From Porphyromonadaceae bacterium UBA2720 (GTDB taxonomy: Bacteria; Bacteroidota; Bacteroidia; Bacteroidales; Muribaculaceae), in NCBI GenBank assembly GCA_002353885.1, contig DEKO01000147.1, forward strand, positions 4,443-68,442: a stretch of 64,000 nt of DNA, written 5' to 3'. The stretch's first letter is position 1, and the number at the start of each line of letters is the position of its first letter. This document shows positions 3,324-59,211 of this stretch, piece by piece. Position numbers and translations under genes: made by a program. The notes below the pieces were generated by a model, which worked only from the letters and a program-made list of their open reading frames with translations, was not told where the DNA came from and ran no database searches.

Positions 3324-3381
3324 AGACCGCGCTTTGCGCTGGTAGATCGTTTCGATGGTAGACCGCGCTTTGCGCTGGTAG
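3324..3381 (-). repeat. Orphan CTACCAGC/GCGGT repeat arm with mini-hairpins
   Basis: Three-unit tract closely matching the right arm of the cassette at 15531-15588. Confidence 0.85.
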
Positions 3382-3397
3382 TGGATAGATGTTATTA

Positions 3398-3452
3398 TAC
3401 ATTATGCATTATGAATTATGCATTGTGCATTATGCATTATTAAAATGCATTG
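3398..3452. repeat. Heptamer tandem repeat (TGCATTA)n
   Basis: tacatta tgcatta tgaatta tgcattg tgcatta tgcatta ... tgcattg. Confidence 0.9.
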
Positions 3453-4286
3453 TCAGTCCCACTGCTTCATGGCATAGGTCTGCTGCTTAAGGAAAGTGCC
3501 TAACTCGTCGGCAGTGGGGTGCTGTGCCAGTGTCTCGGGCAAGATGGGTTGCCCTACCGAGATGCGGAACGTGTCGCCCTTGCGTCTGAAGACTTCGCTG
3601 GGCAGCTTGAGTGTGCGCAGGCGCCAGTCGATCATCCCCAAGATGGTGAATGTGATGCTGTTATGCCCGTGGAAATAGATGGGAATGACAGGTACTTTGA
3701 GCTTCTGAATGAGGCGGATGACGCTGGGTTGCCACTGTCGGTCCTCGATGTGCAAGTCGTGTGTAAACTTGCTCACAGCCCCTGCTGGGAAGAATCCCAG
3801 CGGGTGGCCCTCACGCACATGAGTCATGGCCTGTGCGATGCCACGCATGCTCACTGCTCGCTTGGCCGGGTCGTCGCTCTGCAGGGCATCGACGGCAATG
3901 AAGTTGGGCCGCATGGCGCTGATGTAGTTCAGTATCATATTGACCATCACCTTGAAGTCGTCACGGTGCTCGCCGATGAGCTTGATGAGCATGATGCCGT
4001 CCAGTGCACCGAAGGGGTGGTTGCTCACTGTGATGAACGCTCCTTGTGGCAGGTTGTCCAGCACCTCTTGCCCTCGCACCTTGATGGTGATGTTCAGGTC
4101 GTTGAGCAGACCTTGCACAAAGGGCACTCCCGGCGTGTCGCAGTTGTGGTCGTGTATCCAGTTGACCTTGTCGATGGCGAGCATGCGCGACAAGAAGCTC
4201 ACCAGCCTCGGCTTGCCGTCAAACCAAGGCACCATCTGTCGTATGTCGTCGTAGTCGAGTACGGTTCGTTTAATCGGTTGAGCCAT
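3453..4286 (-). CDS. Lysophospholipid/glycerol acyltransferase (PlsC domain)
   Basis: NHPFGALDG (HxxxxD) and FFPAG motifs; start moved to MAQPIK because a promoter lies at 4309-4316. Confidence 0.88.
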   Translation of the reverse strand: MAQPIKRTVLDYDDIRQMVPWFDGKPRLVSFLSRMLAIDKVNWIHDHNCDTPGVPFVQGLLNDLNITIKVRGQEVLDNLPQGAFITVSNHPFGALDGIMLIKLIGEHRDDFKVMVNMILNYISAMRPNFIAVDALQSDDPAKRAVSMRGIAQAMTHVREGHPLGFFPAGAVSKFTHDLHIEDRQWQPSVIRLIQKLKVPVIPIYFHGHNSITFTILGMIDWRLRTLKLPSEVFRRKGDTFRISVGQPILPETLAQHPTADELGTFLKQQTYAMKQWD

Positions 4287-4308
4287 TGCATTTTTGAGTT
4301 GTGGGCTG

Positions 4309-4316
4309 CAAAGGTA
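4309..4316 (-). promoter_or_regulatory. Bacteroidetes -7 promoter box TACCTTTG
   Basis: Matches TAnnTTTG, 22 nt upstream of the acyltransferase ATG. Confidence 0.7.
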
Positions 4317-4612
4317 CAACATTTTTTTGACATGTGTGACAATTTGTCAGATTTTTTGCTTTTTAGGGCTTTAAATTTCATCATTTTTTGCTCGAATTGG
4401 GGTGGTGAAAGGGCTATAATGTTTGCAGACGCAAACAGGCTGACAAATGACTGAAAGTTACCTGCTTGGGGTGGTGTTGAGAAGGTTGTTAATAACTTTT
4501 TTAGTGAAAAATTTGCAAAATCAAATTTGGGATTCCAAATTATCCAGAAAAAGTTAGTAACTTTACACCCTCAAAACCATATGCAACTGATCGAAGCGCA
4601 ACTTTACCAGTC

Positions 4613-5527
4613 ATGAACGACGTTGTTTATCACATACCTGCTCTGCTTGAAGAGTGTCTTAATGGCTTGAATATCAATCCAGATGGCACCTATGTTGATG
4701 TCACCTTCGGTGGTGGTGGTCACAGCCGTGCCATCGTCGAGCGGCTTTCGCCGCTAGGTCACCTGTATGGCATGGACCAGGACATCGACGCTAGTCGCAA
4801 CCGCATCGACGACCCTCGGTTCACCTTTGTGCTGAGCAACTTTGCCTATCTCAAGAACTTCATGCGCTATTATGGCGTGGCAGGTGTTGACGGCATCTTG
4901 GCCGACCTGGGTGTGTCGTTTCACCACTTCGACGACTCGGAGCGAGGATTCTCGTTCCGCTTCGACGGGCAGCTGGACATGCGCATGAACCGGTCGGCGT
5001 CGCTCGATGCGCGCCAAGTGATCGCCACCTACAGCGAGGAAGAGCTTGCGCGCGTGCTGTATCTCTACGGCGAGCTCAAGCAGAGCCGTCAGATGGCGCG
5101 TGCCATCGTCAAGGCCCGCGCTCAGAGCAGCATCGACACGACCTTGCAGCTGATTGATGTCGTGCAGCCGCACATCCGCCGCAGCCAGGAGAAGAAAGAG
5201 CTGGCCCAGGTGTTCCAGGCACTGCGCATCGAGGTCAACCACGAGGTGGACGTGCTCAAGCGCCTGTTGCAGTCGTCGCTCGATGTGCTGCGTCCTGGCG
5301 GCCGCCTGGTGGTCATCACCTATCACTCGCTCGAAGACCGTCTGGTCAAGAACTTCATGCGCTCGGGCAACATCGAGGGGCAGGTCGTCAAGGACTTCTA
5401 TGGCCGCGTGCAGTCGCCACTCGAGCTGGTCAACAACAAGGTCATCACGCCCAGCGAGGCCGAGGTCGAGCGCAACCCCCGCTCACGCAGCGCCAAGCTG
5501 CGCATCGCGCAAAAAACATGTGATTGA
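4613..5527 (+). CDS. rsmH: 16S rRNA m4C1402 methyltransferase
   Basis: HIPALL, DVTFGGGGHS, DLGVS, YHSLEDR, NPRSRSAKLR. Confidence 0.97.
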   Translation: MNDVVYHIPALLEECLNGLNINPDGTYVDVTFGGGGHSRAIVERLSPLGHLYGMDQDIDASRNRIDDPRFTFVLSNFAYLKNFMRYYGVAGVDGILADLGVSFHHFDDSERGFSFRFDGQLDMRMNRSASLDARQVIATYSEEELARVLYLYGELKQSRQMARAIVKARAQSSIDTTLQLIDVVQPHIRRSQEKKELAQVFQALRIEVNHEVDVLKRLLQSSLDVLRPGGRLVVITYHSLEDRLVKNFMRSGNIEGQVVKDFYGRVQSPLELVNNKVITPSEAEVERNPRSRSAKLRIAQKTCD

Positions 5528-5575
5528 GTTTTGCTATTTTAGGCTCTATCAGACACAAAATCAAGTAACTATAAC

Positions 5576-5983: not shown

Positions 5984-8088
5984 AAGAGACCAACAAAAAA
6001 CACATCTTGCTGCGCTACTCGCTGGTCGTGGGACTGGTGCTGGCGTTCTCTGTGGCCATCGTTTGGGACATGTTCAAGACGGCCGTGGTGTATGGTGCCG
6101 AGTGGAACAGCAAGGCCGACAGTGTGCTGACCAAGGAGACTCCCATCGAGCCTGAGCGTGGCAAACTGCTGGCCGACAACGGCACTGTGCTTGCGGCCAA
6201 CCTGCAATATTACATTGCTCGCATCGACTGGCTTGCAGCCGGCATGAAGAAGGACTCGCTGGACAAGTATCTGCCGGCCTTGTGCGACAGCCTGGCCGTG
6301 CTCGAGCCGTCGAAGGACGCCCAGCAGTGGCGCGCCGAGCTGCTCGAGTCGTATGAGCGCATCACCACCGACAAGAAAAAGAAGAACCACAGCTACCGCC
6401 TGATTCGCCGCATGCTCACCCACGGCGAGTGGCAGCGGCTGAAGGAATTCCCCTTCTTCAAGCAATATGGGTTGAAGAAAGGCATCCTCTACAGCGAGCG
6501 TCAGGTGCGCCGTAGCCGCCCCTACGGCTCAATGGCCTCGCGCAGCATCGGCAATGTGGGCCAGGACTCGACCAGTTCGTGCATCCGCGGGCGTTCGGGT
6601 CTGGAGATGGCGCTCGACTCGCTGCTCTATGGCGAGCCGGGTGTGGCCACACGCATCCAGCTGACCAACAACATTGTCAACCACGAGAGTAAGCCCGCCG
6701 TTCCGGGCTATGACATCACCACCACCATCAATGTGGCGCTGCAAGACATCGTGGAGAATGAGCTCTACAGCATGCTTCACGAGACCGATGCCCGCTGGGG
6801 CACATGTGTGCTGATGGAGGTTGCCACAGGCGAGATCAAGGCCATCAGCAACCTGGAGTGGAACGACAAGGCCGGCGACTATGTCGAGGGCCGCAACAAT
6901 GCCGTGCTGGGCTATGAGCCCGGCTCGGTGATGAAACCCATCTCGATGATGATAGCCATCGAGGAGGGAGTGGTGGGCAACATCGATGCGCCCATCCCGA
7001 CGGGCACGACGTGGCTCTATGAGGGCCGCGCCATCAATGACCCTCATGGCGGCGCCCAGCTCACCCCGCGCCAGATCATCGAGACGTCGTCTAACGTGGG
7101 CATGTCACGCCTGATTGTCAAGCGCTATGGCAACGACCCTGGCGGGTTCTACGACAAGCTCAAGAGCATGGGCTTCTTCGAGCCATTCCACTCGGGCATC
7201 GGTGGCGAGCAGGCGCCCATCATCCACCGCCTGGGCAAGACGCGTGCCGACAAGGTGGCGCTCACACGAATGGCCTTTGGCTACTCGACGCTCATCCCGC
7301 CGCTGAGTGTGCTGGCCATGTACAATGCCATCGCTAACGACGGCAAGTATGTGCGTCCTCACCTGGTGAAGAAGCTCTCGCGCGAGGGCGAGCCCGACAG
7401 CATCGTGCCGGTGACCTATATCCGGCAGCATGTGTGCAGTCCCGAGACTGCCCAGAAACTGCGAATCATGATGCGCGACGTGGTGTGGGGCAATCGAGGC
7501 ACCGCGCGCAAGTGGCTGCAGGACGACCATGTGGCCATCGCGGGCAAGACTGGCACGGCCTACACCATCAACAGCGATGGCCACTATGGCACGCAGAAGC
7601 GTCTGGCATTCTGCGGCTTCTTCCCCTACGAAAATCCCAAATACTCATGCGTTGTGCTGATGCTGGGTGCCAACCGCGGCGCTGGTGCCAGCAGCGGCAT
7701 GGTGCTCAAGAATGTGGCGCTCAAGATGTATGCCCGCGGATTGCTAGGCGATGCGCCCAACTATGCCGTGACGGTCGACAAGGATGGCAAAGCCGTGCCC
7801 AAGTCGCCGACTCCGGCCAAACTCTTTGCCAGCACCAACCCTCGTCAGGCGTCCAACCTGCAGAAGGGTCTTAGCATCCCCAATGCCAAGGTATTCCAGA
7901 AGCCCGACAACGGCAAGGGTGGTGTGCCCAATGTGCGTGGTCTGTCGGTGCGCGACGCCATCCGCCGTCTGGAGGATGCCGGTCTGTGTGTGCGCTTCAG
8001 CGGCAACGGCTATGTCGTGGGTCAGAGCCTGACGGCGGGCAGCAAGTTTGACCGCGGGCAAGTGATACACTTGACGCTGAGGAATTAG
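5980..8088 (+). CDS. ftsI: Penicillin-binding protein (FtsI/PBP3) with C-terminal PASTA domain
   Basis: EPGSVMK (SxxK), SSN, GKTGTA motifs; PASTA VPNVRGLSVRDA. Confidence 0.93.
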   Translation: MKETNKKHILLRYSLVVGLVLAFSVAIVWDMFKTAVVYGAEWNSKADSVLTKETPIEPERGKLLADNGTVLAANLQYYIARIDWLAAGMKKDSLDKYLPALCDSLAVLEPSKDAQQWRAELLESYERITTDKKKKNHSYRLIRRMLTHGEWQRLKEFPFFKQYGLKKGILYSERQVRRSRPYGSMASRSIGNVGQDSTSSCIRGRSGLEMALDSLLYGEPGVATRIQLTNNIVNHESKPAVPGYDITTTINVALQDIVENELYSMLHETDARWGTCVLMEVATGEIKAISNLEWNDKAGDYVEGRNNAVLGYEPGSVMKPISMMIAIEEGVVGNIDAPIPTGTTWLYEGRAINDPHGGAQLTPRQIIETSSNVGMSRLIVKRYGNDPGGFYDKLKSMGFFEPFHSGIGGEQAPIIHRLGKTRADKVALTRMAFGYSTLIPPLSVLAMYNAIANDGKYVRPHLVKKLSREGEPDSIVPVTYIRQHVCSPETAQKLRIMMRDVVWGNRGTARKWLQDDHVAIAGKTGTAYTINSDGHYGTQKRLAFCGFFPYENPKYSCVVLMLGANRGAGASSGMVLKNVALKMYARGLLGDAPNYAVTVDKDGKAVPKSPTPAKLFASTNPRQASNLQKGLSIPNAKVFQKPDNGKGGVPNVRGLSVRDAIRRLEDAGLCVRFSGNGYVVGQSLTAGSKFDRGQVIHLTLRN

Positions 8089-8116
8089 TTTATAGTTTAT
8101 AGTGTATAGTTTATAG
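8089..8116 (+). repeat. Heptamer tandem repeat (TTTATAG)x4 in register with the ftsI stop
   Basis: tttatag tttatag tgtatag tttatag. Confidence 0.9.
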
Positions 8117-8138
8117 TTAAATGTCCAAAAATTTAATC

Positions 8139-9587: not shown

Positions 9588-9667
9588 TCACTGCCACGAC
9601 TAAGGCCGCGGCATAGCCAACAGAACGAAATTATCCATTATTCATTACTCAATATTCATTAATCACG

Positions 9668-11050: not shown

Positions 11051-11221
11051 GTAACCATAAAAAATAACTTGGCACGATTTATTATTGATATCTCCAGCTC
11101 ATCTTTTTGTCCCTTTTTGCTTTGCTCATCAGTTGTTATGCCCGCATAACTCCTTCTTCACAAAACAAAAATGAACTAAAAAACTGAGCTAAATCATACC
11201 AACTTATTTTATAACGGTTAC
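11051..11221. mobile_element. 171-bp MITE-like element with imperfect terminal inverted repeats and TAA target duplication
   Basis: TAA|GTAACCataaaaaataacttgg ... ccaacttattttataacGGTTAC|TAA; no ORF. Confidence 0.75.
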
Positions 11222-14045: not shown

Positions 14046-14085
14046 AATCGAATGATCGAGCAATCGAACAATCGAGCAATCGAAT
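14046..14085 (+). repeat. Octamer tandem repeat (AATCGARY)x5
   Basis: aatcgaat gatcgagc aatcgaac aatcgagc aatcgaat. Confidence 0.9.
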
Positions 14086-14100
14086 AAAAGAAAAAAGAAG

Positions 14101-15204
14101 ATGAAAAGCTTTATCATCAGCGGTGGTGGCACTGGCGGCCACATCTTTCCCGCGCTGTCGATAGCCGGCGAAATCAGCCGGCGCATGCCCGATGCCCGCA
14201 TCCTGTTTGTGGGTGCCCAGGGGCGCATGGAAATGGAACGCGTGCCTGCAGCAGGCTACGAGATCAAGGGCTTGCCGGTCATGGGTTTTGACCGTAGGCA
14301 CTTGCTTCGCAATGTCAAGGTGGTGTATCACCTGCTCAAGAGCATGCGCATGGCTCGTGGCATCATCAGCGATTTCAAGCCCGACATCGCCATCGGTGTG
14401 GGCGGCTATGCCAGCGGTCCGACCCTGAAGGCCGCTCAGCGCATGGGCATCCCCACGCTGCTGCAGGAGCAGAATTCTTATGCCGGCGTGACCAACAAGC
14501 AGCTGGGTGCAGACGCTCGCTGCATCTGCGTGGCCTATGAGGGCATGGAACGCTTCTTCCCCGCCGACCGCATCGTGCTCACGGGCAACCCCATCCGCCA
14601 GAACTTGCTGGAGTGCACAGCCTCTCAAGCCGAGGCGCGGCGCGCCATGGGTGTGGACCCCGACAAGCGCACCATCCTCATCATCGGTGGCAGCCTGGGC
14701 GCATTGAGCGTCAACCGTGTGATCAGTGCCGGGTTGGAGCGCATCGGTCAGTCCGCCAATCAGGTGCAGGTCATCTGGCAGACCGGCAAGACCAACCGTG
14801 GCACCAGCGAGGAAGACTTGGCAGCTTCGGGGGTGACCAATGTGCTGCGCACTGACTTTATCAGCAACATGGACATGGCCTACCGTGCCGCCGACCTGGT
14901 GGTGTCGCGTGCTGGTGCGAGCAGTATCAGCGAGATACAATGCCTGGGTCTGCCAGCCATCCTGGTGCCATCGCCCAACGTGGCCGAGGACCATCAGACC
15001 AAGAATGCCCAGGCCCTTGCGAGCCGCAACGCGGCCATCATGGTGCGCGATGCCGATGCACCCAACGAGCTTGTCGAATGCATGCTGCGCACCGTCACTA
15101 ACGACGGCGTACTCAAGACGTTGGCCGAGAATGTCGCTGCCATGGCTCAGCGCAACAGTGCAGCCCGCATCGTCGACGAAATTTTCAAGATTATCAGTGG
15201 GTAG
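14101..15204 (+). CDS. murG: Lipid II GlcNAc transferase
   Basis: GGGTGGHIFP, GGYASGP, QEQN, GGSLGA, HQTKNA. Confidence 0.97.
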   Translation: MKSFIISGGGTGGHIFPALSIAGEISRRMPDARILFVGAQGRMEMERVPAAGYEIKGLPVMGFDRRHLLRNVKVVYHLLKSMRMARGIISDFKPDIAIGVGGYASGPTLKAAQRMGIPTLLQEQNSYAGVTNKQLGADARCICVAYEGMERFFPADRIVLTGNPIRQNLLECTASQAEARRAMGVDPDKRTILIIGGSLGALSVNRVISAGLERIGQSANQVQVIWQTGKTNRGTSEEDLAASGVTNVLRTDFISNMDMAYRAADLVVSRAGASSISEIQCLGLPAILVPSPNVAEDHQTKNAQALASRNAAIMVRDADAPNELVECMLRTVTNDGVLKTLAENVAAMAQRNSAARIVDEIFKIISG

Positions 15205-15588
15205 ATCGCGCTCCGCGCTGGTAGAACGCTTCGCTGGTAGTATATGGAATCTTTGCATTTATTGACATAATGGAAAATTCAAAATTCTCCTTCGAAAAGT
15301 TAATCGTGTGGCAGAAATCTCGAGCCATGGTTAAGAGCACCTATCTGGTTCTCAACCAATTCCCTAAGGTTGAGCAGTTTGCACTATGCGACCAAATGAG
15401 ACGAGTTCCTTGGCACTAGATTTAGAGTATATTACAAAGGAGATTTTTGATGCTGTGGCACTTGACATCAAAGAAATATCTCGCATGATTTCCGGTCTAA
15501 AGAAGAATTATGACTTAAAATCCTAAAATCAACCAGTCCCAAAGGGCGGTCTACCAGCATAGCGGTCTACCAGCCCGAAGGGCGATCT
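15203..15588 (+). mobile_element. Putative repeat-armed cassette: 38-nt inverted arms around a four-helix-bundle gene
   Basis: Arms 15203-15240 and 15551-15588 match at 32/38 positions as an inverted repeat; AT-rich cargo. Confidence 0.65.
15270..15526 (+). pseudogene. Four helix bundle protein (TIGR02436 / 23S rRNA IVP-like), internally deleted and frameshifted
   Basis: Not in the ORF track. One frame: MENSKFSFEKLIVWQKSRAM..FPKVEQFALCDQMRR (stop 15419); other frame from 15410: LALDLEYITKE..ISRMISGLKKNYDLKS*; the central SxxxNIAEG region is missing. Confidence 0.85.
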
Positions 15589-15599
15589 TTAAAAGAACA

Positions 15600-16964
15600 A
15601 TGAAACAAAATATCTACTTTATTGGCGCGGGCGGCATTGGAATGGCCGCATTGGAGCGCTACTTTCTGGCACGCGGATGCCGTGTGGCCGGTTATGACCG
15701 CACTCCAAGCGAACTCACGCATGAACTGGAGTCCGAGGGTGTGCACATCGACTATAGCGACGACCCGTCGCTCATTCCCGACTGGTGCCGCGACCCCGAG
15801 CAGACCCTGGTGGTCTACACCGCAGCTATGCCGGCCGACCATCCTGTGCTGAGGTGGTTCTGCGACAATGGCTTTGAGGTCATCAAACGCGCCAAGGCGC
15901 TTGGCATCGTCACCATGCACAGCCGTGGATTGTGCTTTGCTGGCACCCATGGCAAGACCACCACATCGAGCATGGCGGCGCACATCCTGCACCAGAGTGG
16001 GGTGGGGTGTAACGCCTTCTTGGGGGGCATCTTGCGCAACTATGGCTCCAACTTCTTGCTGAGCGACTCTAGTCCCTACTCGGTCATCGAGGCCGACGAG
16101 TTTGACCGCTCGTTCCATCAGCTCACTCCCTGGGTTGCCGTGATCACCTCTACCGATCCCGACCACCTCGACATCTATGGCACCGAGGAGGCCTATCTGG
16201 AGAGCTTTGCCCACTTCACCTCGCTCATTAGGCCCGACGGAGCACTCATCGTGCACACGGGGCTGAAACTTGTGCCACGTCCGCACGAGGGTGTGAAGGT
16301 GTACACCTACAGCCGCCATGATGGCGACTTCCATGCGCAGAACATCCGCAAGGCTGACGGCGACATCACCTTCGACCTGGTCACGCCATGGGAGGTGATA
16401 GCCGACATCAGCCTGGGGGTGCCCGTCGACATCAACATCGATAATGCCATCGCAGCCATGGCGGCTTGCCGGCTCACTGAGGTTAGCGCTGATGACATGC
16501 GCCGCGCCATCGCCACCTTCCAGGGCCCCAAGCGCCGCTTTGAGTTCTGGCTGAAAGAGCCCGGCGAGCACGGACGCGTGATGATTGACGACTATGCCCA
16601 CCACCCTGACGAGTTGCGCGCTAGCATCACCAGTGTGCGCGACCTCTATCCTGGCCGCCGGTTGGGTGTCATTTTTCAGCCGCATCTCTACACTCGCACA
16701 CGCGACTTCGCGCCCGAGTTTGCCCAGGTGCTGTCGCTGGCCGACGAGGTCTATCTGCTTCCCATCTATCCAGCACGCGAGCAGCCCATTCCCGGTGTCA
16801 CCAGCGAGATCATACTCAACAGGCTCACATGTGCTAAAAAAGCTATAATTCCGCGCGAAAAATTGGTCGAATCGATTAAAAGCCTTAACTTTGACGTTTT
16901 GTTGACCGTCGGTGCCGGCGATATCGACCGCCTCTTGCCCGACATCCGCCAGCAGCTACTCTAG
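15600..16964 (+). CDS. murC: UDP-MurNAc--L-Ala ligase
   Basis: GAGGIGM, GTHGKTTT, EADEFDRSF, DDYAHHP, FQPHLYTRT. Confidence 0.97.
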   Translation: MKQNIYFIGAGGIGMAALERYFLARGCRVAGYDRTPSELTHELESEGVHIDYSDDPSLIPDWCRDPEQTLVVYTAAMPADHPVLRWFCDNGFEVIKRAKALGIVTMHSRGLCFAGTHGKTTTSSMAAHILHQSGVGCNAFLGGILRNYGSNFLLSDSSPYSVIEADEFDRSFHQLTPWVAVITSTDPDHLDIYGTEEAYLESFAHFTSLIRPDGALIVHTGLKLVPRPHEGVKVYTYSRHDGDFHAQNIRKADGDITFDLVTPWEVIADISLGVPVDINIDNAIAAMAACRLTEVSADDMRRAIATFQGPKRRFEFWLKEPGEHGRVMIDDYAHHPDELRASITSVRDLYPGRRLGVIFQPHLYTRTRDFAPEFAQVLSLADEVYLLPIYPAREQPIPGVTSEIILNRLTCAKKAIIPREKLVESIKSLNFDVLLTVGAGDIDRLLPDIRQQLL

Positions 16965-16966
16965 TT

Positions 16967-17438
16967 TCAGACAATAAAGACATAAAGACATATTTTTATA
17001 TGTATGGATGTTGAACAAATCATGTCAGACATAGTTCAAAGTGCCTATGAAGTCAGAGGTGCGCTTAAGCCAGGCTTTTTAGAGAAAGTCTATGAGAATG
17101 CCATGGCAATAGAACTTCGCTCTAGAGGCTATGAGGTTAAGCAACAGGTCTCCATTGATGTGAGGTATAAAGGGTATCAAGTAGGTGACTATATAGCCGA
17201 TCTCATTGTCAATGACAGGGTTGTCATTGAAATCAAGGCCACGAGAAATATCGATGTGACTCATGAGCTGCAAACAGTTTCTTATCTGACTGCTACGGGG
17301 ATAGACAATGGCATTATTCTCAATTTTGGCAATCCTGATAAAGTTCAAATAAAAAGGAAATATCGAATATTCAGAACAAGACAATAAAGATTGCAAATGG
17401 CCAATATAAAAAATTGTCTTTATGTCTTTTTCGTCTAA
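16967..17438 (+). mobile_element. Putative repeat-armed cassette: 25-nt inverted arms around the GxxExxY gene
   Basis: tcagacaataaagacataaagacat (16967-16991) vs ttgtctttatgtctttttcgtctaa (17414-17438), 21/25 match. Confidence 0.65.
17004..17387 (+). CDS. GxxExxY protein (PD-(D/E)XK nuclease-like)
   Basis: GFLEKVY motif, ADLIV..VIEIK catalytic pattern, GIILNFG; AT-rich, atypical codon usage. Confidence 0.92.
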   Translation: MDVEQIMSDIVQSAYEVRGALKPGFLEKVYENAMAIELRSRGYEVKQQVSIDVRYKGYQVGDYIADLIVNDRVVIEIKATRNIDVTHELQTVSYLTATGIDNGIILNFGNPDKVQIKRKYRIFRTRQ

Positions 17439-17449
17439 AAAAAGAAAAA

Positions 17450-18346
17450 TTGAAACGGATTATTCAAAATATGATATTGCTGGTCATGGCGGGGCTGCTG
17501 CTGTGGGGCATCTTCTGGGCCCGCGGCAAGGCAGCCGATGAGCTGTGCCAGCGCGTCGAGGTAACCATCGACAATGCCGACAGCACACAGTTTGTCACCC
17601 CGCAAGGCGTCATTACCGAGCTGGCCAGCCTGGGCTTCAAGGTCGTGGGCAAACCCATGTGGCAAATCGATGCCAGTCGCATCGAGCAGGCATTGCAGCG
17701 GTCGGACTATCTGGAGAAGGCCGAGTGTGTCAAGGGTCCCGATGGCGTGCTGATGATTCGCGTCAGCCAACTGGTGCCCGTGCTCAGGGTCTTCGACGGC
17801 GACCAGAGCTACTATGTCAACCGCTACGGCAAGAAGATGAGCGCCACAGCCAGCTATCATGCCGACGTTCCGGTGGTGCAGGGGCACTTCACCGATCGTT
17901 ACCCCGCCACCCGGCTGTTGCCCATGGTGCAATATGTCGAGGGCGACTCGCTGCTGCGCTCGCTGGTGACCATGTTCACCATGCGCGACAGCGACAACAT
18001 CTTCATTGTCCCCGCCATCTATGGCCACGTCGTCAACATGGGCAATGCCGCTGACTATGAGGCCAAGTTCCGCAAGCTCAAGCTCTTCTACCGCAAGGTC
18101 ATGCCTGCCAAGGGGTGGGAGACCTACGACACCATCTCGGTCAAGTGGGACCACCAGGTCGTGGCCACCCGTCGTCACAAGGCTGTGAAGATTGAGATGA
18201 CCTACGACTCGGCCTACGACGAACCCGAGACCGACATCCAGACCATGTCGATCGACGAAGACCGCCACACCCTGGCTGTCGACAGCAAGAAGAAACAAGC
18301 GACAAGCGACAAAAAGCAAGAAACAAGAGACAAGAAACAACAATAA
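17450..18346 (+). CDS. ftsQ: Cell division protein FtsQ/DivIB
   Basis: N-terminal TM and POTRA-like region, position before ftsA; TTG start at 17450 chosen because the ORF-track start lies in the repeat arm. Confidence 0.85.
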   Translation: MKRIIQNMILLVMAGLLLWGIFWARGKAADELCQRVEVTIDNADSTQFVTPQGVITELASLGFKVVGKPMWQIDASRIEQALQRSDYLEKAECVKGPDGVLMIRVSQLVPVLRVFDGDQSYYVNRYGKKMSATASYHADVPVVQGHFTDRYPATRLLPMVQYVEGDSLLRSLVTMFTMRDSDNIFIVPAIYGHVVNMGNAADYEAKFRKLKLFYRKVMPAKGWETYDTISVKWDHQVVATRRHKAVKIEMTYDSAYDEPETDIQTMSIDEDRHTLAVDSKKKQATSDKKQETRDKKQQ

Positions 18347-18379: not shown

Positions 18380-18397
18380 CCCATTTAAACCAACGAA

Positions 18398-18425
18398 GGG
18401 TAAGGGGTAAAGGGTAAGGGGTAAA
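18398..18425 (+). repeat. Heptamer repeat (GGGTAAR)x4
   Basis: gggtaag gggtaaa gggtaag gggtaaa. Confidence 0.9.
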
Positions 18426-18434
18426 GGTCTGTGT

Positions 18435-18503
18435 GTCCCCCCCAAGCCCCCCTAAGGGGGGTGTACAATGTGGCTGATTCCCCCTTTAGGGGGCTAGGGG
18501 GAC
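18435..18503. repeat. REP-like inverted doublet (CCCCCTWAGGGGG type)
   Basis: gtcccccccaagcccccctaagggggg ... ccccctttagggggctagggggac; each unit internally palindromic. Confidence 0.75.
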
Positions 18504-18550
18504 GATGGGGGGCTTGTGACTCGAAATAGAAAAAACAAAACATCATAACT

Positions 18551-21329: not shown

Positions 21330-21363
21330 GCTTAAAGCTTATTGCTTAAGGCTAATAGCCTAA
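21329..21363. repeat. Heptamer repeat (GGCTTAA-like)x5
   Basis: ggcttaa agcttat tgcttaa ggctaat agcctaa. Confidence 0.8.
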
Positions 21364-21367
21364 AAAA

Positions 21368-21946: not shown

Positions 21947-21950
21947 TTTA

Positions 21951-22067
21951 TTTAAGTTTTTAAGTTTCGAGTTTTGTGTTTCGAGTTTCGCGTTGCGAGC
22001 ATTCGAGCATTCGATTATTCGAGCATTCGATATATTAACGACCAACGTCTAACATCTAACGTCTAAC
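21951..22067 (-). repeat. Three abutting periodic tracts (7-mer, 8-mer, 7-mer) filling the hpt/adk junction
   Basis: ttcgagt-type, attcgagc-type and aacgtct-type units. Confidence 0.9.
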
Positions 22068-22602: not shown

Positions 22603-22620
22603 AGATGTCGAATTTTTCGG

Positions 22621-22628
22621 CAAAATTA
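22621..22628 (-). promoter_or_regulatory. -7 box TAATTTTG for hpt-adk
   Basis: Consensus match 18 nt upstream of the ATG. Confidence 0.7.
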
Positions 22629-22905
22629 GTGCAAGTTGCGCGCAATACAAAATGAAAAACGTAGTTTTACATTTTTTTTGCCGAAACACCGCCCAAAATA
22701 CGATTCAGCGAGGCCATGCGAGCTTGCTCGCTGATGGCCGGGCGTGAGCATTTTATCCAACCATTAGTGCAAGTAGAGTGAAGTACACAATGAAAAACGC
22801 AGCTTTTTTGGGAACTCTCTTTAATCATCCCCCAAAGAGGGGAAAGAACAAAATATTTTTCGATAGTTTTTTTGTTTTTTTTCTCGATTGACGCAAAAAA
22901 AACAC

Positions 22906-27700: not shown

Positions 27701-27812
27701 CACAGAATCCACTGAATGCACAGAAGTGCTCACGCAATTTCCCTTGGCTGCTGCGGACGTGCCAAGGCACATCCCTACTGGCATGACTAGCGTCTAACGT
27801 CTAGCGTCTAGC
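27701..27812. repeat. Composite of 9-mer repeat, GTAG-type REP and 7-mer repeat
   Basis: cacagaatc cactgaatg cacagaa; minus-strand GTAGGGATGTGCC-TT-GGCACGTCC (27753-27778); agcgtct aacgtct agcgtct. Confidence 0.75.
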
Positions 27813-30192: not shown

Positions 30193-30237
30193 ACACCCCC
30201 GTTCAGGCAGATTTGCACTCTGCCCGAACGGGGGTGT
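30193..30237. terminator. Strong hairpin between convergent genes
   Basis: acacccccgttcaggcaga-tttgcac-tctgcccgaacgggggtgt. Confidence 0.7.
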
Positions 30238-32683: not shown

Positions 32684-32725
32684 AAGTTGAAACGCAAAAC
32701 TCGTAACTTGAAACTCAAAACTCAA
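32684..32725 (+). repeat. Heptamer repeat (AACTCRW-like)x6 forming the pheT 5' UTR
   Basis: aagttga aacgcaa aactcgt aacttga aactcaa aactcaa. Confidence 0.8.
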
Positions 32726-32729
32726 AGAT

Positions 32730-35224: not shown

Positions 35225-35295
35225 TCACGAATTAGGGAATTAAAGGATTATTTAGTCGGCAGATGCTAAATTTTCGATAATTCTCTAATTCGTGA
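35225..35295. repeat. Cargo-free inverted repeat with 9-nt periodic arms
   Basis: tcacgaattagggaatta ... taattctctaattcgtga (17/18). Confidence 0.85.
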
Positions 35296-35309: not shown

Positions 35310-36758
35310 ATGGACGATAATTCTAGACAACTTCCTCATCCGCTGGTTGCAGCCTTGCCACTGGTGGTGCTGATTGGGCTGCTGGTGGTGGTCATCGCGC
35401 TATTTGGCAGCGACTCGCTGGCTGGTGGCAGCCAGACGGCGCTGTTGATGGGCGTGGCTGTGTGCGTGTTCATCTCGATGGTGTTCTACCACGTTCCGTG
35501 GAAGATGTTTGAGCAGCAGATGGCACAGACGATGAGTGGCATCTTTGTGACGCTGATGATTTTGTTGGCCGTGGGTATGCTTGCTGGGTCGTGGATGGTA
35601 GGCGGTGTTGTACCCACGCTCATCTACTATGGTGTTCAGTTGCTGTCGCCGCGGTTCTTCCTGGTCAGCGCATGTATCATTTGCTCGCTTGTGTCGCTGC
35701 TGTCGGGCAGTTCATGGACCACCGTTGCCACGCTGGGTGTGGCTTTGCTGGCCATCGGTCAAGCTCTGGGCATCAGCACAGCTTGGACCGCGGGTGCCAT
35801 CATCTCGGGAGCCTACTTTGGCGACAAGATGTCGCCACTGAGCGACACCACCATCCTGGCCTCGTCGGCCACAGGTGTCGACATCTTTGTGCACATCCGC
35901 TACATGATGCACACCACTGTGCCGGCCCTGCTCATTGCATTGCTGGTCTATACCATTGCCGGCCTGGGTTTCGGCAGCGAAGGGGAGCTACACATCGAAC
36001 AGTATACTCGCGGCCTGTCATCTACGTTCAACATCTCGTTGTGGACGTTGCTTGTGCCGCTAGCGACCGGTGTTCTGATTTGGCGCAAAGTGCCGTCGCT
36101 CATCGTTCTGTTTGTCTCGTCGTTGCTGGCAGGCATCACCGCACTCATCCTTCAGCCGCACATACTGACGCAGATAGCCGGCGACCCGTCGTTGGGCACT
36201 GCTGCCGCTCTCACAAAGGGTCTGACCATCACCTACTGTAGCGCGACTGCAGTTGACACCGGCTATGCAGCACTGAACGACCTGGTGTCGACGGGTGGCA
36301 TGGCTGGTATGCTCAACACCATCTGGCTCATCATCTGTGCCATGTGCTTTGGTGCCGCCATGCTGGCCAGCGGCATGATCCAGAGTTTGACTGCTGTGAT
36401 TGTGCGTTGGGTGCGCACCCGTTTCTCGCTGGTGGGCTCGACCGTGCTCTCGGGCTTGCTGCTCAATCTCACCACCGGCGACCAGTTTATCAGCATTGTG
36501 CTCAATGCCGATATGTTCCGCGAGGTGTACCGTAAGGAAGGTTATGAAGGACGATTGCTGAGCCGCACCACCGAGGACGCCGTCACTGTGACATCGGTGC
36601 TGGTTCCGTGGAACACATGCGGCATGACTCAAGCTACCGTGCTGGGTGTGCCCACACTGACCTACCTGCCTTACTGCTTCTTCAACATGCTGTGTCCGCT
36701 GATGACGCTGCTGGTGGCAGCCATTGGCTGGCGCATCAGCCGCAGTACTGACAAGTAG
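35310..36758 (+). CDS. nhaC: NhaC family Na+/H+ antiporter
   Basis: GSSWTT, GAYFGDKMSPLSDTT, LVPWN motifs. Confidence 0.9.
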   Translation: MDDNSRQLPHPLVAALPLVVLIGLLVVVIALFGSDSLAGGSQTALLMGVAVCVFISMVFYHVPWKMFEQQMAQTMSGIFVTLMILLAVGMLAGSWMVGGVVPTLIYYGVQLLSPRFFLVSACIICSLVSLLSGSSWTTVATLGVALLAIGQALGISTAWTAGAIISGAYFGDKMSPLSDTTILASSATGVDIFVHIRYMMHTTVPALLIALLVYTIAGLGFGSEGELHIEQYTRGLSSTFNISLWTLLVPLATGVLIWRKVPSLIVLFVSSLLAGITALILQPHILTQIAGDPSLGTAAALTKGLTITYCSATAVDTGYAALNDLVSTGGMAGMLNTIWLIICAMCFGAAMLASGMIQSLTAVIVRWVRTRFSLVGSTVLSGLLLNLTTGDQFISIVLNADMFREVYRKEGYEGRLLSRTTEDAVTVTSVLVPWNTCGMTQATVLGVPTLTYLPYCFFNMLCPLMTLLVAAIGWRISRSTDK

Positions 36759-37043
36759 TTAAGGAGTAAGTAGTTTTTTTAGTAGTAGTGTAGTAAAGTA
36801 GTAAGGCCGATACATTATATTGGCAGCACGCGTCCCCGGCACCATCATGTAATTGACCCTACCTTAAAACATAGTTAAAAACAACATTTTCTTTACGTTT
36901 GTTTGAGAATAATGTTGTGTCTTTGCATTCCGTAAGCGGTTGAAATGGAATTTGTTCCGTTTTTTCGCCTTGCGAAATGCGATTATTTTGGTTGAAATTT
37001 ACAATCCACTTGATATATTAACCCAATTTTAAAAAACATCAAC

Positions 37044-43576: not shown

Positions 43577-43668
43577 TGTGTTGTTCGTTTTTTTGTGTGT
43601 TTCCACTAGTAATGCTGCAAAATTACAACATTTCGGGTAAACAGCCAAATTATTAGCCGTAATAATTC

Positions 43669-43803
43669 AATTCTCAGTTCTCAATTCTCAAGTCTCATTT
43701 TTTTTTAGTACCTTTGCGCGATTTTTGTAAAACCCAAGAGGATTGGGAGGTAGGAGTCCAAAATTCAGTGATGCTGAAGATTCTCAATTTTCAATTCTCA
43801 ATT
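43669..43803 (+). repeat. Two (AATTCTC)n tracts flanking the leuS promoter
   Basis: 43669-43696 and 43779-43803; -7 box TACCTTTG at 43709-43716 lies between them. Confidence 0.85.
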
Positions 43804-46585: not shown

Positions 46586-46735
46586 CAAGAGGCGATAAAC
46601 AAGAAGCAAACTAATCCGCATTTTCCACCCTCACCAATGATGGGGGTGGAAGTTTGTGCTCAATGCTGAACAAAAACCAATCATCCAAAATAAGAGATTT
46701 TTTAACCCTAATTATTTACACGCTAAACTAAATCT

Positions 46736-47359: not shown

Positions 47360-47529
47360 TTGTTCACGGCATCGCACACATTGTGACCAAGTATAGACAA
47401 CGTTTCGCCCAAATGTAGGTCGTTAGCACCACATTTGGGCGAAATCTTATCTGTAGTCAGCAATGTGTGGCCAAACACCGCATTTGTTATGAGTCAAGTT
47501 GCTTGTCACGACATCTAAAATGCTCAGCA

Positions 47530-51837: not shown

Positions 51838-51865
51838 TGACTGGCACCAGAGATTGGAGAATATT

Positions 51866-51930
51866 AAACCGCGAATATCGCGAATGCTATGCAACAAATT
51901 GCTGATAAGCATTCACGATATTCGCAGTTT
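51866..51930. repeat. Inverted repeat with 9-nt periodic arms; probable terminator between hutI and glsA
   Basis: aaaccgcgaatatcgcgaatgct ... agcattcacgatattcgcagttt (21/23) followed by a T-run. Confidence 0.8.
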
Positions 51931-52888: not shown

Positions 52889-52893
52889 TTTCT

Positions 52894-52969
52894 TTTAGAC
52901 TTTAGTTTTTAGACGTTAGACTTTAGTCGTGGCAGCGGTAAGCCATAAGCTATTAGCCAATGGCAGCTA
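52894..52969 (-). repeat. Two heptamer tracts at the symporter/glsA junction
   Basis: tttagac-type x5 (52894-52928) and taagcca-type x3 (52939-52959). Confidence 0.85.
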
Positions 52970-54649: not shown

Positions 54650-54733
54650 GCACTGAGCTATCCAACTACTGGTCCACGTCATTGTTTGGCACACGCCATG
54701 CAATGAGTGGGCCACTTTTGCGTTATATAACTG

Positions 54734-55435: not shown

Positions 55436-55522
55436 ATGGCCGCGACACAGTCGCGGCATACAGGACTGCGCAGACCGCACATATTTTTGATTGATCATTA
55501 AAAAAACATTACCTTTGCAGCG

Positions 55523-56161: not shown

Positions 56162-56191
56162 GTAATGCATAATTCAATTCATAATTTATTG

Positions 56192-57244
56192 ATGAAAATC
56201 AAGATATTGGCTATCGCGGCATTGGCCGCAATCATGGGGGCATGTGGCAGCGATGAACCCAAACCCAGCATCAACGATGACGATGTGGTGCATGTCAAGG
56301 AAGAAGCCGACCGTACTGTGCTAATCGGCACAGAGGATGGCAAGGTGTACAACATGAAGGACGGCAGTGTCTATTCGCCCCTGACGGGCTGCGAGTGGGT
56401 CAACAACATGGCTATGCATGGCGAGGACTACTATGTGGCCGGCTACGGATCCACCTTGGGCGGCTTTTACTGGCACAATGGTGAGCCCGTTTCGCTTGAT
56501 GTCGCCATTCATGAGACCTATGACATTGCCCGCAGCTACGACCATGTGTACGTTCTTGCCGATGCCGGCGAGGTGGGCTATGGCGTGTACCGTGATGGCA
56601 CGTTGGTGGCCCAGACGAGCGAAGCGCAACTATCTGCCCTGGCAGTCTATGCCGACAAGTTCTATGCCGTGGGCAGCAAAAGAGAGACAGTGCCTGCACT
56701 GTTTACCAACAATGGTGTTGTGGAGCTTAGCAATGGAGGTTACCCAACAGTGGCCACAAGCATTGACTTGGTGGCCAACAGCCAGAATGTGACACACTAT
56801 ATCGCGGGCTATCATAGCCAGACCGTCGATGGTGTCGCATTAAGGATACCATGCCTGTGGCGAAATGGCACCTTGTCGACACTGCCGCTGAACTTCACCG
56901 ACAGCGAGAAGAACCGCAATACCTATCGCTCGGGCATGGCCAACGATGTGGCGCATTCTGGTCAGATAATCTATACTGTGGGTTATCGCACCGACGGACA
57001 TAACCGTCGGGCCACCGTGTGGATTACATCGACCAGCGATGACGACCAGGTGAGGACCTACTGGCAGGCCGATGGCAATGTTGAGGCCCAGGCCGTGCGT
57101 GTGCTGGTCTATGGCAGCGACATCTATGTGATGACGCTCGAGCACAACCTCGACACCGATGCCTGGTGCACCCGCGTGTGGATGAATCACACGCTCAAGG
57201 GAACCGTTAACGGCATCATCGGCAACGCATTTGTAGTCATCTAA
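56192..57244 (+). CDS. Hypothetical lipoprotein (beta-propeller-like repeats)
   Basis: Lipobox MGAC; repeated Y(V/I)AGY..W.NG units. Confidence 0.75.
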   Translation: MKIKILAIAALAAIMGACGSDEPKPSINDDDVVHVKEEADRTVLIGTEDGKVYNMKDGSVYSPLTGCEWVNNMAMHGEDYYVAGYGSTLGGFYWHNGEPVSLDVAIHETYDIARSYDHVYVLADAGEVGYGVYRDGTLVAQTSEAQLSALAVYADKFYAVGSKRETVPALFTNNGVVELSNGGYPTVATSIDLVANSQNVTHYIAGYHSQTVDGVALRIPCLWRNGTLSTLPLNFTDSEKNRNTYRSGMANDVAHSGQIIYTVGYRTDGHNRRATVWITSTSDDDQVRTYWQADGNVEAQAVRVLVYGSDIYVMTLEHNLDTDAWCTRVWMNHTLKGTVNGIIGNAFVVI

Positions 57245-57260
57245 ACCAGTAAGCGGAAAA

Positions 57261-58232
57261 ATGAAAATGCTATATGCAATGGTGGGACTAGCCATGATGA
57301 CCATGGCTTGTGGAAGCGGCAACAATGCTGCCACTACAACCGAAAACAATTCAGACCAGACTGCACCCCCTGCCATGACATTCAGCGCCGACAGCGCCTA
57401 TAGCTATGTCAAGCAACAGTGCGACATGGGGCCGCGTGTGCCCGGCACACCCGCTCACGAGCGTTGTGCACAGTGGCTCACCGCCAGTTTGCGGCAGTGG
57501 TGCGACACCGTCGTTGTGCAACAAGCACCAGTCACGACCTTCGACGGCAAGCAACTCAACTGCAAGAACATTGTGGGAACCTTCAACCCCCAGGCCAGCG
57601 ACCGCTTGCTGGTGCTGGCACACTGGGACTGCCGCCCATGGGCCGACAATGACCCCGACCCGTCGCTGCGTCAACAGCCTGTGATGGGTGCCAACGACGC
57701 AGCCAGCGGCACGGCTGTCATCCTCGAACTGGCGCATCTGATGGCTCAGCAGCGTCCCGAGGTGGGCGTTGACCTGCTGCTGGTCGACGTCGAGGACTGG
57801 GGTGAGAACGAGAATGAAGACTCATGGGCGCTGGGCACGCAATACTGGGCCAACAACCCGCATGTGGCTGGCTATCGTGCCAACTGCGGCATCCTCCTTG
57901 ACATGGTCGGCACCCGCGGGGCACGATTCACACAGGAGTACTTCTCGAAGCAATATGCGCAGGGTGTGATTGACATGGTGTGGAAGACGGCCAGTCAGTC
58001 GGGCTTTGGTAGCTACTTTATCAACCAGGACGGTGGAGCCATCACCGATGACCATGTCATGGTCAACCGCCTTGCTGGCATACCCACCATCGACATCATC
58101 GATATGCGGCTCGACAGCGACACGGGATTCTTCGATGGTTGGCACACCACCCACGACACCCTCGACCAGATAGATCCCGCCACGCTGCGCGCCGTGGGCC
58201 AGACCCTGGTCAACCTCATCTACAACTGGTAG
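57261..58232 (+). CDS. M28 family peptidase / glutaminyl cyclase lipoprotein
   Basis: Lipobox TMAC, AHWD, GANDAASG, EDWG, LDMVG, DDH, WHT. Confidence 0.9.
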   Translation: MKMLYAMVGLAMMTMACGSGNNAATTTENNSDQTAPPAMTFSADSAYSYVKQQCDMGPRVPGTPAHERCAQWLTASLRQWCDTVVVQQAPVTTFDGKQLNCKNIVGTFNPQASDRLLVLAHWDCRPWADNDPDPSLRQQPVMGANDAASGTAVILELAHLMAQQRPEVGVDLLLVDVEDWGENENEDSWALGTQYWANNPHVAGYRANCGILLDMVGTRGARFTQEYFSKQYAQGVIDMVWKTASQSGFGSYFINQDGGAITDDHVMVNRLAGIPTIDIIDMRLDSDTGFFDGWHTTHDTLDQIDPATLRAVGQTLVNLIYNW

Positions 58233-58308
58233 GAAATGATACAATCGGGGACGGTTCTCTTTTGTATCAAAAATCGCAACGAATCAATCATTCGCAAAGT
58301 TTGATCGC

Positions 58309-59157
58309 ATGAAATACTATATCGTCGACGCATTCACTGACCAGCCCTTCGGGGGCAACCCTGCGGGAGTGGTGCTGCTGGAGCAGGGTGGGGCCTTCCC
58401 GAGCGATGATCTCATGCAGCACATCGCTGCCGAGTTGCGCTACAGCGAGACCGCATTTGTGCAGCAGAACGGCCCTGCAGAGTTCACCGTGCGCTACTTC
58501 ACTCCGTGTGCCGAGGTCGACCTGTGCGGTCACGCCACTATCGCTACCTTTGGCACACTAGTGCGCGAGGGCATCGTGCCCGCAGGCACCCTATGCGTCA
58601 ATCACACCCTTGCCGGCGACCTGCAGGTCATGGCCGACGTGCAGGTGATGATGCAGATGGCCCCGGCCCGGGTCATCGACCGCCACATCGACGTTGAGCG
58701 TCTGCACCACATCATGGCAGGCGAACAGCTGTCGCAATGGCCGCAATGGCCTGTCGAGATCGTTACCACAGGTTTGCCCGACATCATCATGCCAGTGGCC
58801 AGTGTCGAGGCCCTGCACGCGCTACGGCCCGACATGGACGCACTGGCGCAGCTCAGTCGCGAGCTCGAGGTCACTGGTGTGCATGCCGTGGCCATGGCTA
58901 GCGACGACTATACAGCCCACGTTCGCAACTTCGGCCCCCTCTACGGTGTGCCCGAGGAGAGCGCCACCGGCACAGCTAATGCCGCGCTCACCCACTGGTT
59001 GCAGCGCCGCGGGTTCATCCAGCCTGGCGACAGTTGTCGTTTTGTCCAGGGCGAGGCCATGCAGCGTCCATCGGTCGTGGCCACCACTCTGCAGCCTGAC
59101 GGCACCATCTGGGTGGGTGGCACCTGTTTCATCGTCGCCCGTGGAGTGTTTTTTTGA
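58309..59157 (+). CDS. PhzF family isomerase
   Basis: VDAFT...GGNPAGV, SETAF, EVDLCGHAT, EESATG. Confidence 0.92.
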   Translation: MKYYIVDAFTDQPFGGNPAGVVLLEQGGAFPSDDLMQHIAAELRYSETAFVQQNGPAEFTVRYFTPCAEVDLCGHATIATFGTLVREGIVPAGTLCVNHTLAGDLQVMADVQVMMQMAPARVIDRHIDVERLHHIMAGEQLSQWPQWPVEIVTTGLPDIIMPVASVEALHALRPDMDALAQLSRELEVTGVHAVAMASDDYTAHVRNFGPLYGVPEESATGTANAALTHWLQRRGFIQPGDSCRFVQGEAMQRPSVVATTLQPDGTIWVGGTCFIVARGVFF

Positions 59158-59211
59158 ACCGCGAATGTCGTTTAATCATTCTCAATTCTCAATAAAAGAA
59201 AAAGAAGCATC

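Follow-up and report, generated by a model that had tools for sequence, protein, structure and literature searches.

Small genes between inverted tandem-repeat arms at protein-gene junctions of a Muribaculaceae genome: candidate mobile cassettes resembling 23S rRNA intervening sequences

Introduction

Repetitive extragenic palindromic (REP) sequences and bacterial interspersed mosaic elements (BIMEs) with their Y1 transposases of the REP-associated tyrosine transposase (RAYT) type, like MITEs (miniature inverted-repeat transposable elements), exist in autonomous and gene-less forms, lie in intergenic regions near stop codons, and stack into mosaics. A different kind of small insert, the intervening sequence (IVS) of the Coxiella burnetii 23S rRNA gene, is described in the available parts of PMC4990558: an open reading frame (ORF) of the PF05635/S23p family is enclosed, in the sense direction, by an inverted-repeat stem of 28 bp, the number of tandem heptamers upstream of the ORF varies between strains, the GC content is low, horizontal gain was followed by vertical residence, the ORF decays through deletion, and excision by RNase III has been shown. 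Here, we analyzed a 64,000-nt stretch of the genome of Porphyromonadaceae bacterium UBA2720 (family Muribaculaceae), hereafter the window, in which small genes at junctions of the division and cell wall (dcw) operon are enclosed by inverted arms. We document the anatomy of these cassettes, the coupling of repeat unit to gene lineage, their strand polarity, and their patchy distribution. We favor, with somewhat better than even confidence, the reading that they are mobile cassettes of the IVS type that move between junctions and species, and that gene-less tracts are their footprints.

Intergenic heptamers themselves have been reported, by Rehm et al. (2015) in Xanthomonas and Nostoc (PMC4692102) and by MacGregor (2015) as TAACTGA repeats in Beggiatoaceae, Cyanobacteria, and Bacteroidetes (PMC4679880). 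The passages of both papers available to us describe the heptamers without a mechanism and tie no cargo gene to them, and the text of PMC4679880 contains no mention of "four helix," "intervening," or "GxxExxY." A literature search, with most subscription papers outside its reach, gave no publication in which these repeats are connected with these cargo genes in mRNA operons, and the preprint 10.64898/2026.10.21.760802, queried for six terms, held no relevant passage.

Results

Anatomy and cargo of filled cassettes

The window is G000:C36:4443-68442 in our numbering (contig DEKO01000147.1) and belongs to a 3.19-Mb assembly that is 82% complete; its gene content suggests a member of the Bacteroidales, and the metagenome runs holding its DNA are by record mostly bovine, sheep, or unspecified gut. 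We compared this genome with 36 relatives of the genus (37 genomes with the present one), among which G012 is the sister genome. Four-helix genes (TIGR02436) were found in 29/36 relatives and GxxExxY genes (TIGR04256) in 33/36, with 86 and 109 matches, respectively. The Bacteroides thetaiotaomicron genome, used as a control, also gave a TIGR02436 match. With contig-edge, partial, and lower-ranked unfetched copies omitted and the present genome's own included, 73 four-helix and 74 GxxExxY genes were scored.

Each of the five full-length TIGR02436 genes in the present genome is enclosed by inverted arms of 7- or 8-mers, which span the junction from stop to start. Two of its three GxxExxY genes likewise lie within inverted arms, and the third is inside a longer 10-mer array. 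Across the genus, inverted arms flanked 68 of the 73 four-helix and 69 of the 74 GxxExxY genes, versus 8/73 and 19/74 for a direct-repeat control, which bears out the predicted co-location of the tracts with these two families. The arm period was 7 in 56/73 four-helix cassettes and 8 to 10 in 52/74 GxxExxY cassettes, only one of which had period 7. The cargo was co-oriented with the upstream gene in 50/51 and 54/58 scorable copies, respectively. Cassettes were flanked by protein genes and a few tRNA genes; none lay inside an rRNA gene, and no transposase was found inside them, the cargo families being PF05635, PF13366, and, as a third, DUF559 (PF04480), which had palindromic arms in 4/4 copies inspected. 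One four-helix copy also matched bAvd (PF22296) at 40.3 bits (cut-off 40), with 134.6 bits for PF05635. The Bacteroidota -7 promoter motif TAnnTTTG was present in 5/68 four-helix and 5/69 GxxExxY leaders versus 218/362 divergent promoter regions. A shared leader motif was sought among 6-mers, and none was found other than the arms themselves.

The cargo is under purifying selection: nonsynonymous divergence (dN) was far below synonymous divergence (dS) in 6/9 pairs, and dS was saturated in the remaining three. Such selection would also be expected of a domesticated system, in which the tracts would be RNA binding sites or translation or processing signals and the cognate four-helix protein, as a five-subunit assembly, would regulate the neighboring genes; two relatives of this protein in the Protein Data Bank (PDB) have five chains per entry. 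We regard domestication as improbable. Seven of the 36 relatives have no TIGR02436 match, and copies with the same unit are not excluded within genomes (2/73 pairs, compared with 51/2072 between genomes).

Several individual loci add to this description. A four-helix domain at G000:C139:348-554 (minus strand) opens a 551-aa open frame; upstream is an 8-mer tract like that of hpt/adk, and no arm pair was seen. A GxxExxY gene at G000:C191:24042-24383 (minus strand) stands amid long arrays of 10-nt units on both sides, direct as well as inverted. An etfA-like gene (G000:C147:500-2600) has a DUF559 cassette on one side and a four-helix cassette on the other. At L118, L115, and related loci beside the homolog of G000:C224:8066-9955, four-helix cassettes have a tRNA gene on one flank and a protein gene on the other, and they occupy either side of the same gene in different species. 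Other inserts at dcw junctions include a gene of ~1 kb behind a 7-mer left arm at murG/murC in G035 (L026), a short ftsZ-like piece at ftsA/ftsZ in G009 (L029), and, at murC/ftsQ in G053 (L037), AT-rich inserted DNA of ~1 kb.

The two cassettes of the window

Within the window, rsmH, ftsI, murE, mraY, murD, ftsW, murG, murC, ftsA, and ftsZ were named by NCBIfam, as were adk and hpt, which follow the dcw genes; ftsL and ftsQ were assigned by position only. The cassettes at murG/murC and murC/ftsQ (Table 1) are both also found in the sister genome (MurC 93% identical). They are absent from murG/murC in the 34 other genus genomes scored and from murC/ftsQ in 35 others. In genus genomes without the latter cassette, murC and ftsQ mostly overlap; in both filled genomes, murC is 3 to 4 residues shorter, and the murC stop of G012 lies within the arm. 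The GxxExxY lineage of the window recurs with near-identical arms in G005 and G001, where it occupies two further junctions. By profile match, its product would belong to the PD-(D/E)XK nuclease family PF13366, and a PDB sequence search with it gave no significant relative. An assembly artifact was ruled out, as this cassette is also covered by contigs of three DNA runs made in other studies.

The murG/murC left arm matches that of the filled cassette of G012 (L001), whose intact 123-aa four-helix copy is the reference for the deletion in the window gene. TRF (Tandem Repeats Finder) gave no tract at this junction; its degenerate arms pair with each other yet are non-heptameric. The four-helix cargo of the window is decaying by ordinary deletions, and the clean cargo loss proposed in the original prediction is unsupported; in DNA run X3, a separate joint leads from the left arm into the apparent missing part of the gene. 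The five arm pairs proposed in the window form duplexes far above shuffled sequence (z -7.0 to -9.1), compared with -0.3 to 0.9, that is, no duplex signal, for three non-matching combinations, and predicted whole-cassette folds retain 21 to 32 arm-to-arm pairs.

RNA runs were available as assembled contigs only. The contigs of run X15 cover the flanking genes and neither cargo; 74 unplaced letters stand in the contig before 17447, so that a different allele is as likely as removal from the RNA. In run X16, one contig takes in the final 37 nt of murC and runs on through the cargo; this does not prove a single transcript. No joint listed for the RNA runs skips a cargo (15 of 40 shown).

Mobility and coupling of arm unit to cargo lineage

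Four-helix cassettes occupied 48 distinct flank pairs (35 singletons) and GxxExxY cassettes 44 (30 singletons). The junctions pheS/nth, lptC/corC-like, doxX-like/mnmA, and etfA/acd are filled in the present genome and without cargo in the sister and the other relatives compared; at doxX-like/mnmA in the sister, the stop is directly followed by the start. One further site is filled in the sister only. The cargo is not fixed by vertical inheritance at these sites, as filled and unfilled states differ among genus genomes. The pyrG/yidC junction holds three cassette lineages across the genus and stacked empty arms in the present genome; in G028, two contigs carry two different cargoes there, one of which may be contamination.

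Cargo clades keep their own arm unit across sites and hosts. With one copy per site, arm similarity correlated with cargo identity for four-helix (rho 0.28, permutation p 0.0005) and GxxExxY cassettes (rho 0.15, permutation p 0.0055). Arrays of AATGCAY occurred in 10/37 genomes, including all 6 carriers of the cognate clade, and arrays of TAGTYNY with at least 30 matches in 13/37, including all 10 carriers; reversed control patterns gave 0 to 3 matches per genome. Among the copies retrieved, cognate cargo was missing from four AATGCAY-rich and three TAGTYNY-rich genomes. The present genome suggested one filled copy per arm type, and this rule was unsupported across the genus.

Some cargo is younger than the split of its hosts, with a synonymous difference of 0.20 at different sites versus 0.43 to 0.55 for the hosts; at one shared site, the cargo differed by 0.11 and the flanks by 0.32 and 0.29. 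With regard to homing endonuclease cassettes, in which the cargo cuts the unfilled allele and the flanks are co-converted, several same-site cargo pairs are younger than both flanks and host, and most are not. Scattered flank pairs, unit-lineage coupling, and cargo younger than the hosts' split together support mobility. In different species, close cargo relatives also stand at neighboring junctions within one and the same operon (L080/L076, L133/L068, and L046/L054, drawn from G007, G032, G019, G014, and G022), which hints at local hopping.

Extent of the tracts

Tracts were detected by TRF, by direct reading, and by our own period detector against shuffled sequence. Among 1632 intergenic regions, 235 carried a tract of period 7, 71 of period 8, and 34 of period 9 (0.3, 0.3, and 0.2 after shuffling), and our detector gave no tract-bearing region for periods 4, 5, and 11. 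The pattern is genuine and extends over the whole genome, well outside dcw: 241/1104 co-directional junctions of the whole genome carried a tract, and the 10/40 found in the window at the strict threshold are close to the genome rate. The tracts that the original prediction had placed at dcw junctions, at adk/hpt, and at more than ten junctions elsewhere were present by TRF and direct reading. Most of the eight dcw junctions said to carry 7- to 9-nt tracts do so; murG/murC does not, as its arms are not 7- to 9-mers, and mraY/murD has a weak arm match (best 11-11.5) and consists mostly of a separate 161-nt repeat.

Targeting of essential operons, also proposed there, reduces to a bias. Only 31/375 dcw junctions across the 37 genomes carried a tract, just one of them within a 21-genome clade; dcw tracts are restricted by lineage, and their units differ even between the two sister genomes. 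In the present genome, the number of junctions with a tract per ~254 rose from 29 to 80 as the host-like coding score increased. This rise is also expected from long residence. The preference for host-like genes would also suit domestication, as would the excess of right-arm-only (96) over left-arm-only (55) junctions and, in the parts of PMC4679880 available, the post-transcriptional regulator that MacGregor (2015) proposed for heptamers just before starts. However, tracts turn over at homologous junctions between sister species, and most genus genomes have no dcw tracts.

Gene-less tracts compared with cassette arms

For the footprint reading, tracts were compared solely with arms belonging to filled cassettes of other genomes. 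Some arm match was obtained for 256/321 tracts, versus 113 to 130 for column-permuted controls. Tracts at stops matched left arms over right arms 53:0 (n = 70; 16 without match, 1 tie), and those before starts matched right arms over left arms 63:5 (n = 80; 12 without match), so that the predicted strand polarity holds genome-wide. The G:C skew was 55:12 at stops and 7:75 at starts, against backgrounds of 208:289 and 152:354. The original prediction had framed polarity as a rule of G-containing and C-containing tracts; this holds for four-helix arms (left arm G>C, 36:16) and is reversed in GxxExxY arms (11:18), and the real rule is left versus right arm. Stops in all three frames were present in 55/73 near-stop tracts, compared with 31 on the opposite strand. 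The three proposed states (filled, empty, and orphan) were all found, and the link of the arms to cargo was confirmed.

Ordinary slippage in AT-rich spacers, with an incidental link to small genes, is very improbable as a full account of these tracts and is contradicted by the arm anatomy, the left/right rule, and the unit-by-lineage data: slippage does not yield inverted pairs, that rule, cargo-specific periods, or a distribution of units by lineage. It is plausible for length change within arms. Arm copy number is strain-variable, one contig having two additional 8-mer units at 16973, and Rehm et al. recall the slippage hypothesis and, in the available passages, do not generally find heptamers with mobile elements (PMC4692102).

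Several observations weigh against the reading of mobile cassettes with footprints. The 313 tract junctions comprised 197 single arms, 66 unmatched combinations, 41 empty pairs, and 9 wide-loop pairs, the first two classes outnumbering the last two, and at the strict threshold, junctions with both a left and a right arm were more often unmatched (28) than matched (10). Tracts at convergent junctions had no G/C polarity (11:11), and the rates at divergent (38/207) and convergent junctions (34/201) were close to the co-directional rate. Inspection by eye of five filled/unfilled comparisons showed neither a target-site duplication nor a conserved terminal motif, but the hosts compared are ~80% identical in DNA. 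In most same-site cargo pairs, divergence equals or exceeds that of the hosts, which indicates that long vertical residence is common. No joint listed for the DNA runs skips either window cassette (15 of 147 joints shown), and to that extent both appear to be fixed in this species. The counts associating arm units with cargo come from related genomes that lack independence, and the threshold of 30 matches was set after the counts had been seen; the Fisher values for this association are therefore overstated. Finally, no cargo fragment was found in 298/304 tract-bearing junctions, and the other six hold intact cargo. This is not what gradual decay of full cassettes would lead one to expect; either a single step across the hairpin usually removes the cargo, or the arms are deposited without it.

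The second of these alternatives, in which orphan arms are non-autonomous modules and not relics, is in our judgment rather unlikely, yet it is the strongest competitor. A protein supplied by one or a few filled cassettes, with or without a Y1 transposase (IS200/REP type) or a reverse transcriptase, would deposit or copy its cognate arm at gene ends in trans. Besides the missing cargo traces, this would suit the single filled TAGTYNY-type cassette alongside 130 pattern matches here and 3 in the sister, as well as the 28 unmatched left-and-right pairs, where 11.3 were expected for all left-and-right pairs under independence. The spacers are patchworks in which several arm families mix with GTAG-REP-like motifs. 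These motifs are enriched in tract junctions (43/256 versus 25/823), and Y1-transposase help may contribute; a shared loop motif of empty pairs was rejected as weak (9/256 versus 12/823). The four-helix family also resembles Avd, the reverse-transcriptase partner in diversity-generating retroelements, as far as the available part of PMC10053308 describes it. The original prediction of transposase-free cassettes stands in part: no transposase lies within them, but the genome has five Y1-transposase matches and the GTAG-REP-like enrichment. On the other side, the five Y1 loci inspected have their own non-heptamer flanks, one with an orphan heptamer tract further downstream. The arm-rich sister G012 (83% complete) has no RVT_1 match, and G017 has one RVT_1 match but neither arm pattern. 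Cassette geometry is kept in the 41 empty matched pairs, and deletion across the hairpin loop could likewise erase cargo without trace.

Other features of the window

The coordinates of all features are collected in Table 1. The murE/mraY tract had been overlooked in the original prediction, and for the ftsW/murG tract no cognate filled cassette was found. A further tract at 18290-18340 falls within the low-complexity tail of ftsQ, which is Lys-rich in 13/13 sequences shown, and is therefore doubtful. The 161-nt element at mraY/murD (11055-11215) has three near-full copies in the genome with 89 to 100% identity, and contigs from all four DNA runs compared skip 11081-11199, which gives it the look of a small polymorphic insertion of recent origin. 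Upstream of hpt, a dispersed palindromic repeat (22610-22760) with 53 matches here and ~20 in the sister is unrelated to the tandem arms. Single-copy, non-tandem long hairpins at gene ends (47390-47480, 30195-30235, and 46620-46650) are probably terminators or other small elements. A 190-aa protein encoded at 60936-61508 had a sub-threshold match to the magnetosome protein MamQ (72.6 bits; cut-off 250) and probably belongs to the LemA family.

Table 1. Cassettes, arms, and tracts in the window (positions count from the first letter of the window)
Feature	Position	Strand	Remarks
murG/murC left arm; degenerate GTAG-containing ~20-nt units over murG stop	15198..15242	+	duplex z -8.7
Four-helix (PF05635/TIGR02436) cargo remnant, GC 0.39	15270..15520	+	115-nt internal deletion, frameshift
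murG/murC right arm; ends 7 nt upstream of murC start	15545..15592	+	
murC/ftsQ left arm, 8-mer AAAGACAT, at murC stop	16962..16992	+	duplex z -9.1
GxxExxY gene, intact, 127 aa, GC 0.39	17004..17387	+	TIGR04256 127.6 bits; PF13366 124 bits
murC/ftsQ right arm	17405..17440	+	duplex, arm matching
Empty paired 8-mer arms, murD/ftsW, four-helix type; GTAG-REP-like motif in loop	12590..12657	+	z -7.0
Empty paired 9-mer arms, pheT/nhaC; weak best match (13.5) to GxxExxY arms	35225..35294	+	z -7.5
Empty paired arms, convergent hutI/glutaminase; weak GxxExxY-type match	51862..51930	+	z -7.6
DUF559-type cassette, empty form, palindromic CCCC/GGGG arms, ftsQ/ftsA	18432..18510	+	filled form L294 in G012
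Orphan right arm, murG/murC type, before sigma-54 regulator start	3324..3381	-	
Orphan left arm, AATGCAY 7-mer, after acyltransferase stop	3394..3451	-	unmatched with 3324-3381, z -0.3
Orphan left arm, 7-mer over ftsI stop (ftsI/murE)	8086..8118	+	
Orphan right arm, 7-mer before mraY start (murE/mraY)	9630..9665	+	common to sister genome
8-mer tract, 67-nt ftsW/murG spacer	14046..14087	+	ftsW and murG overlap in sister genome
7-mer tract, ftsQ/ftsA	18396..18427	+	no cognate filled cassette found
Degenerate period-7/14 tract, convergent ftsZ/adk	21330..21364	.	
Three stacked tracts, hpt/adk: left 7-mer at hpt stop, 8-mer, right 7-mer before adk start	21947..22067	-	
Orphan right arm, 7-mer	27787..27812	+	
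Orphan right arm before pheT start	32690..32726	+	
8-mer tracts over nhaC stop	36755..36804	+	
Two orphan right arms, ATTCTCA, upstream of leuS	43660..43803	+	
Orphan right arm before glutaminase start	52893..52930	-	
Orphan right arm before YifB/ComM-family gene start	59178..59193	+	

Discussion

Each cassette consists of a four-helix-bundle or a GxxExxY gene enclosed by a pair of inverted arms in a repeat unit of its own. We propose that insertions would survive only at stop/start junctions, where stop codons in the units of the left arm may help, and that the cargo, which presumably has no canonical promoter, would ride the host transcript by read-through. The arms are predicted to pair in the mRNA, and RNase III, by analogy with the Coxiella IVS, would cut the stem and leave the flanking ORFs whole. 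The cargo would then be lost or move on, and the arms would erode through slippage. The likeliest route of insertion may be host recombination or repair aided by the nuclease-fold cargoes (GxxExxY and DUF559), and the non-catalytic four-helix protein would bind its own arms.

A broader idea, which we hold only tentatively and at clearly less than even confidence, is a transposase-free mobile class in which the cargo protein recognizes its own 7- to 10-nt unit and writes it at gene ends, the left arm at stops and the right arm at starts, hopping cleanly or acting in trans. One or two genes could then explain dozens of tracts in a genome, as well as the excess of heptamers in many bacteria, and the 23S rRNA IVS would be one landing site. 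The cassettes themselves bring together three loose ends: the unexplained excess and polarity of intergenic heptamers, the origin of ORF-bearing 23S IVSs, and the role of TIGR02436 and TIGR04256, two widespread hypothetical families. The pairing of lineage with unit provides concrete protein/repeat pairs, and if the arms are RNase III sites, the elements could shape mRNA processing at ~1/5 of the operon junctions here.

Among known systems, REP/BIME elements and MITEs share with the cassettes the filled and gene-less forms, the position near stops, the mosaics, and the GTAG motifs seen in the murG/murC arms. They differ in that the cargo here is not a transposase and the arms are tandem 7- to 10-mers whose unit changes from one cargo lineage to another; target-site duplications were not seen by eye. 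A cognate Y1 transposase inside the same repeats, as in REP/RAYT systems, was absent at the five Y1 loci inspected, and no transposase lies between the inverted arms of the cassettes, as it would in insertion sequences (IS) and MITEs. The match of one four-helix copy at the PF22296 cut-off recalls bAvd of diversity-generating retroelements, as the available part of PMC10053308 presents it. At the junctions inspected, the cargo gene stands alone, with no reverse transcriptase or template/variable repeat (TR/VR) pair seen, and the single RVT_1 match of the present genome is on another contig. The heptamers of Rehm et al. and MacGregor, so far as the available passages describe them, agree with the present tracts in period 7, intergenic position, and sense-strand G richness after stops with the complement before starts, whereas the units here are many and mostly AT-rich (PMC4692102, PMC4679880).

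The closest likeness is to the Coxiella 23S IVS, and the IVS-like anatomy foreseen in the original prediction is upheld by the comparison: a sense four-helix ORF, pairing inverted terminal repeats, and tandem heptamers, to judge from the available parts of PMC4990558. Unlike that IVS, the cassettes stand at protein-gene junctions and not in an rRNA gene. They are found at dozens of sites with cargo from at least three families, most of it under purifying selection, and ~300 cargo-free tracts accompany them; RNase III excision, shown for the Coxiella IVS, is for them a prediction by analogy (PMC4990558, same parts). The 23S IVS and the heptamers were already known; judged from sequence, what appears new is an IVS-type anatomy at the junctions of protein genes.

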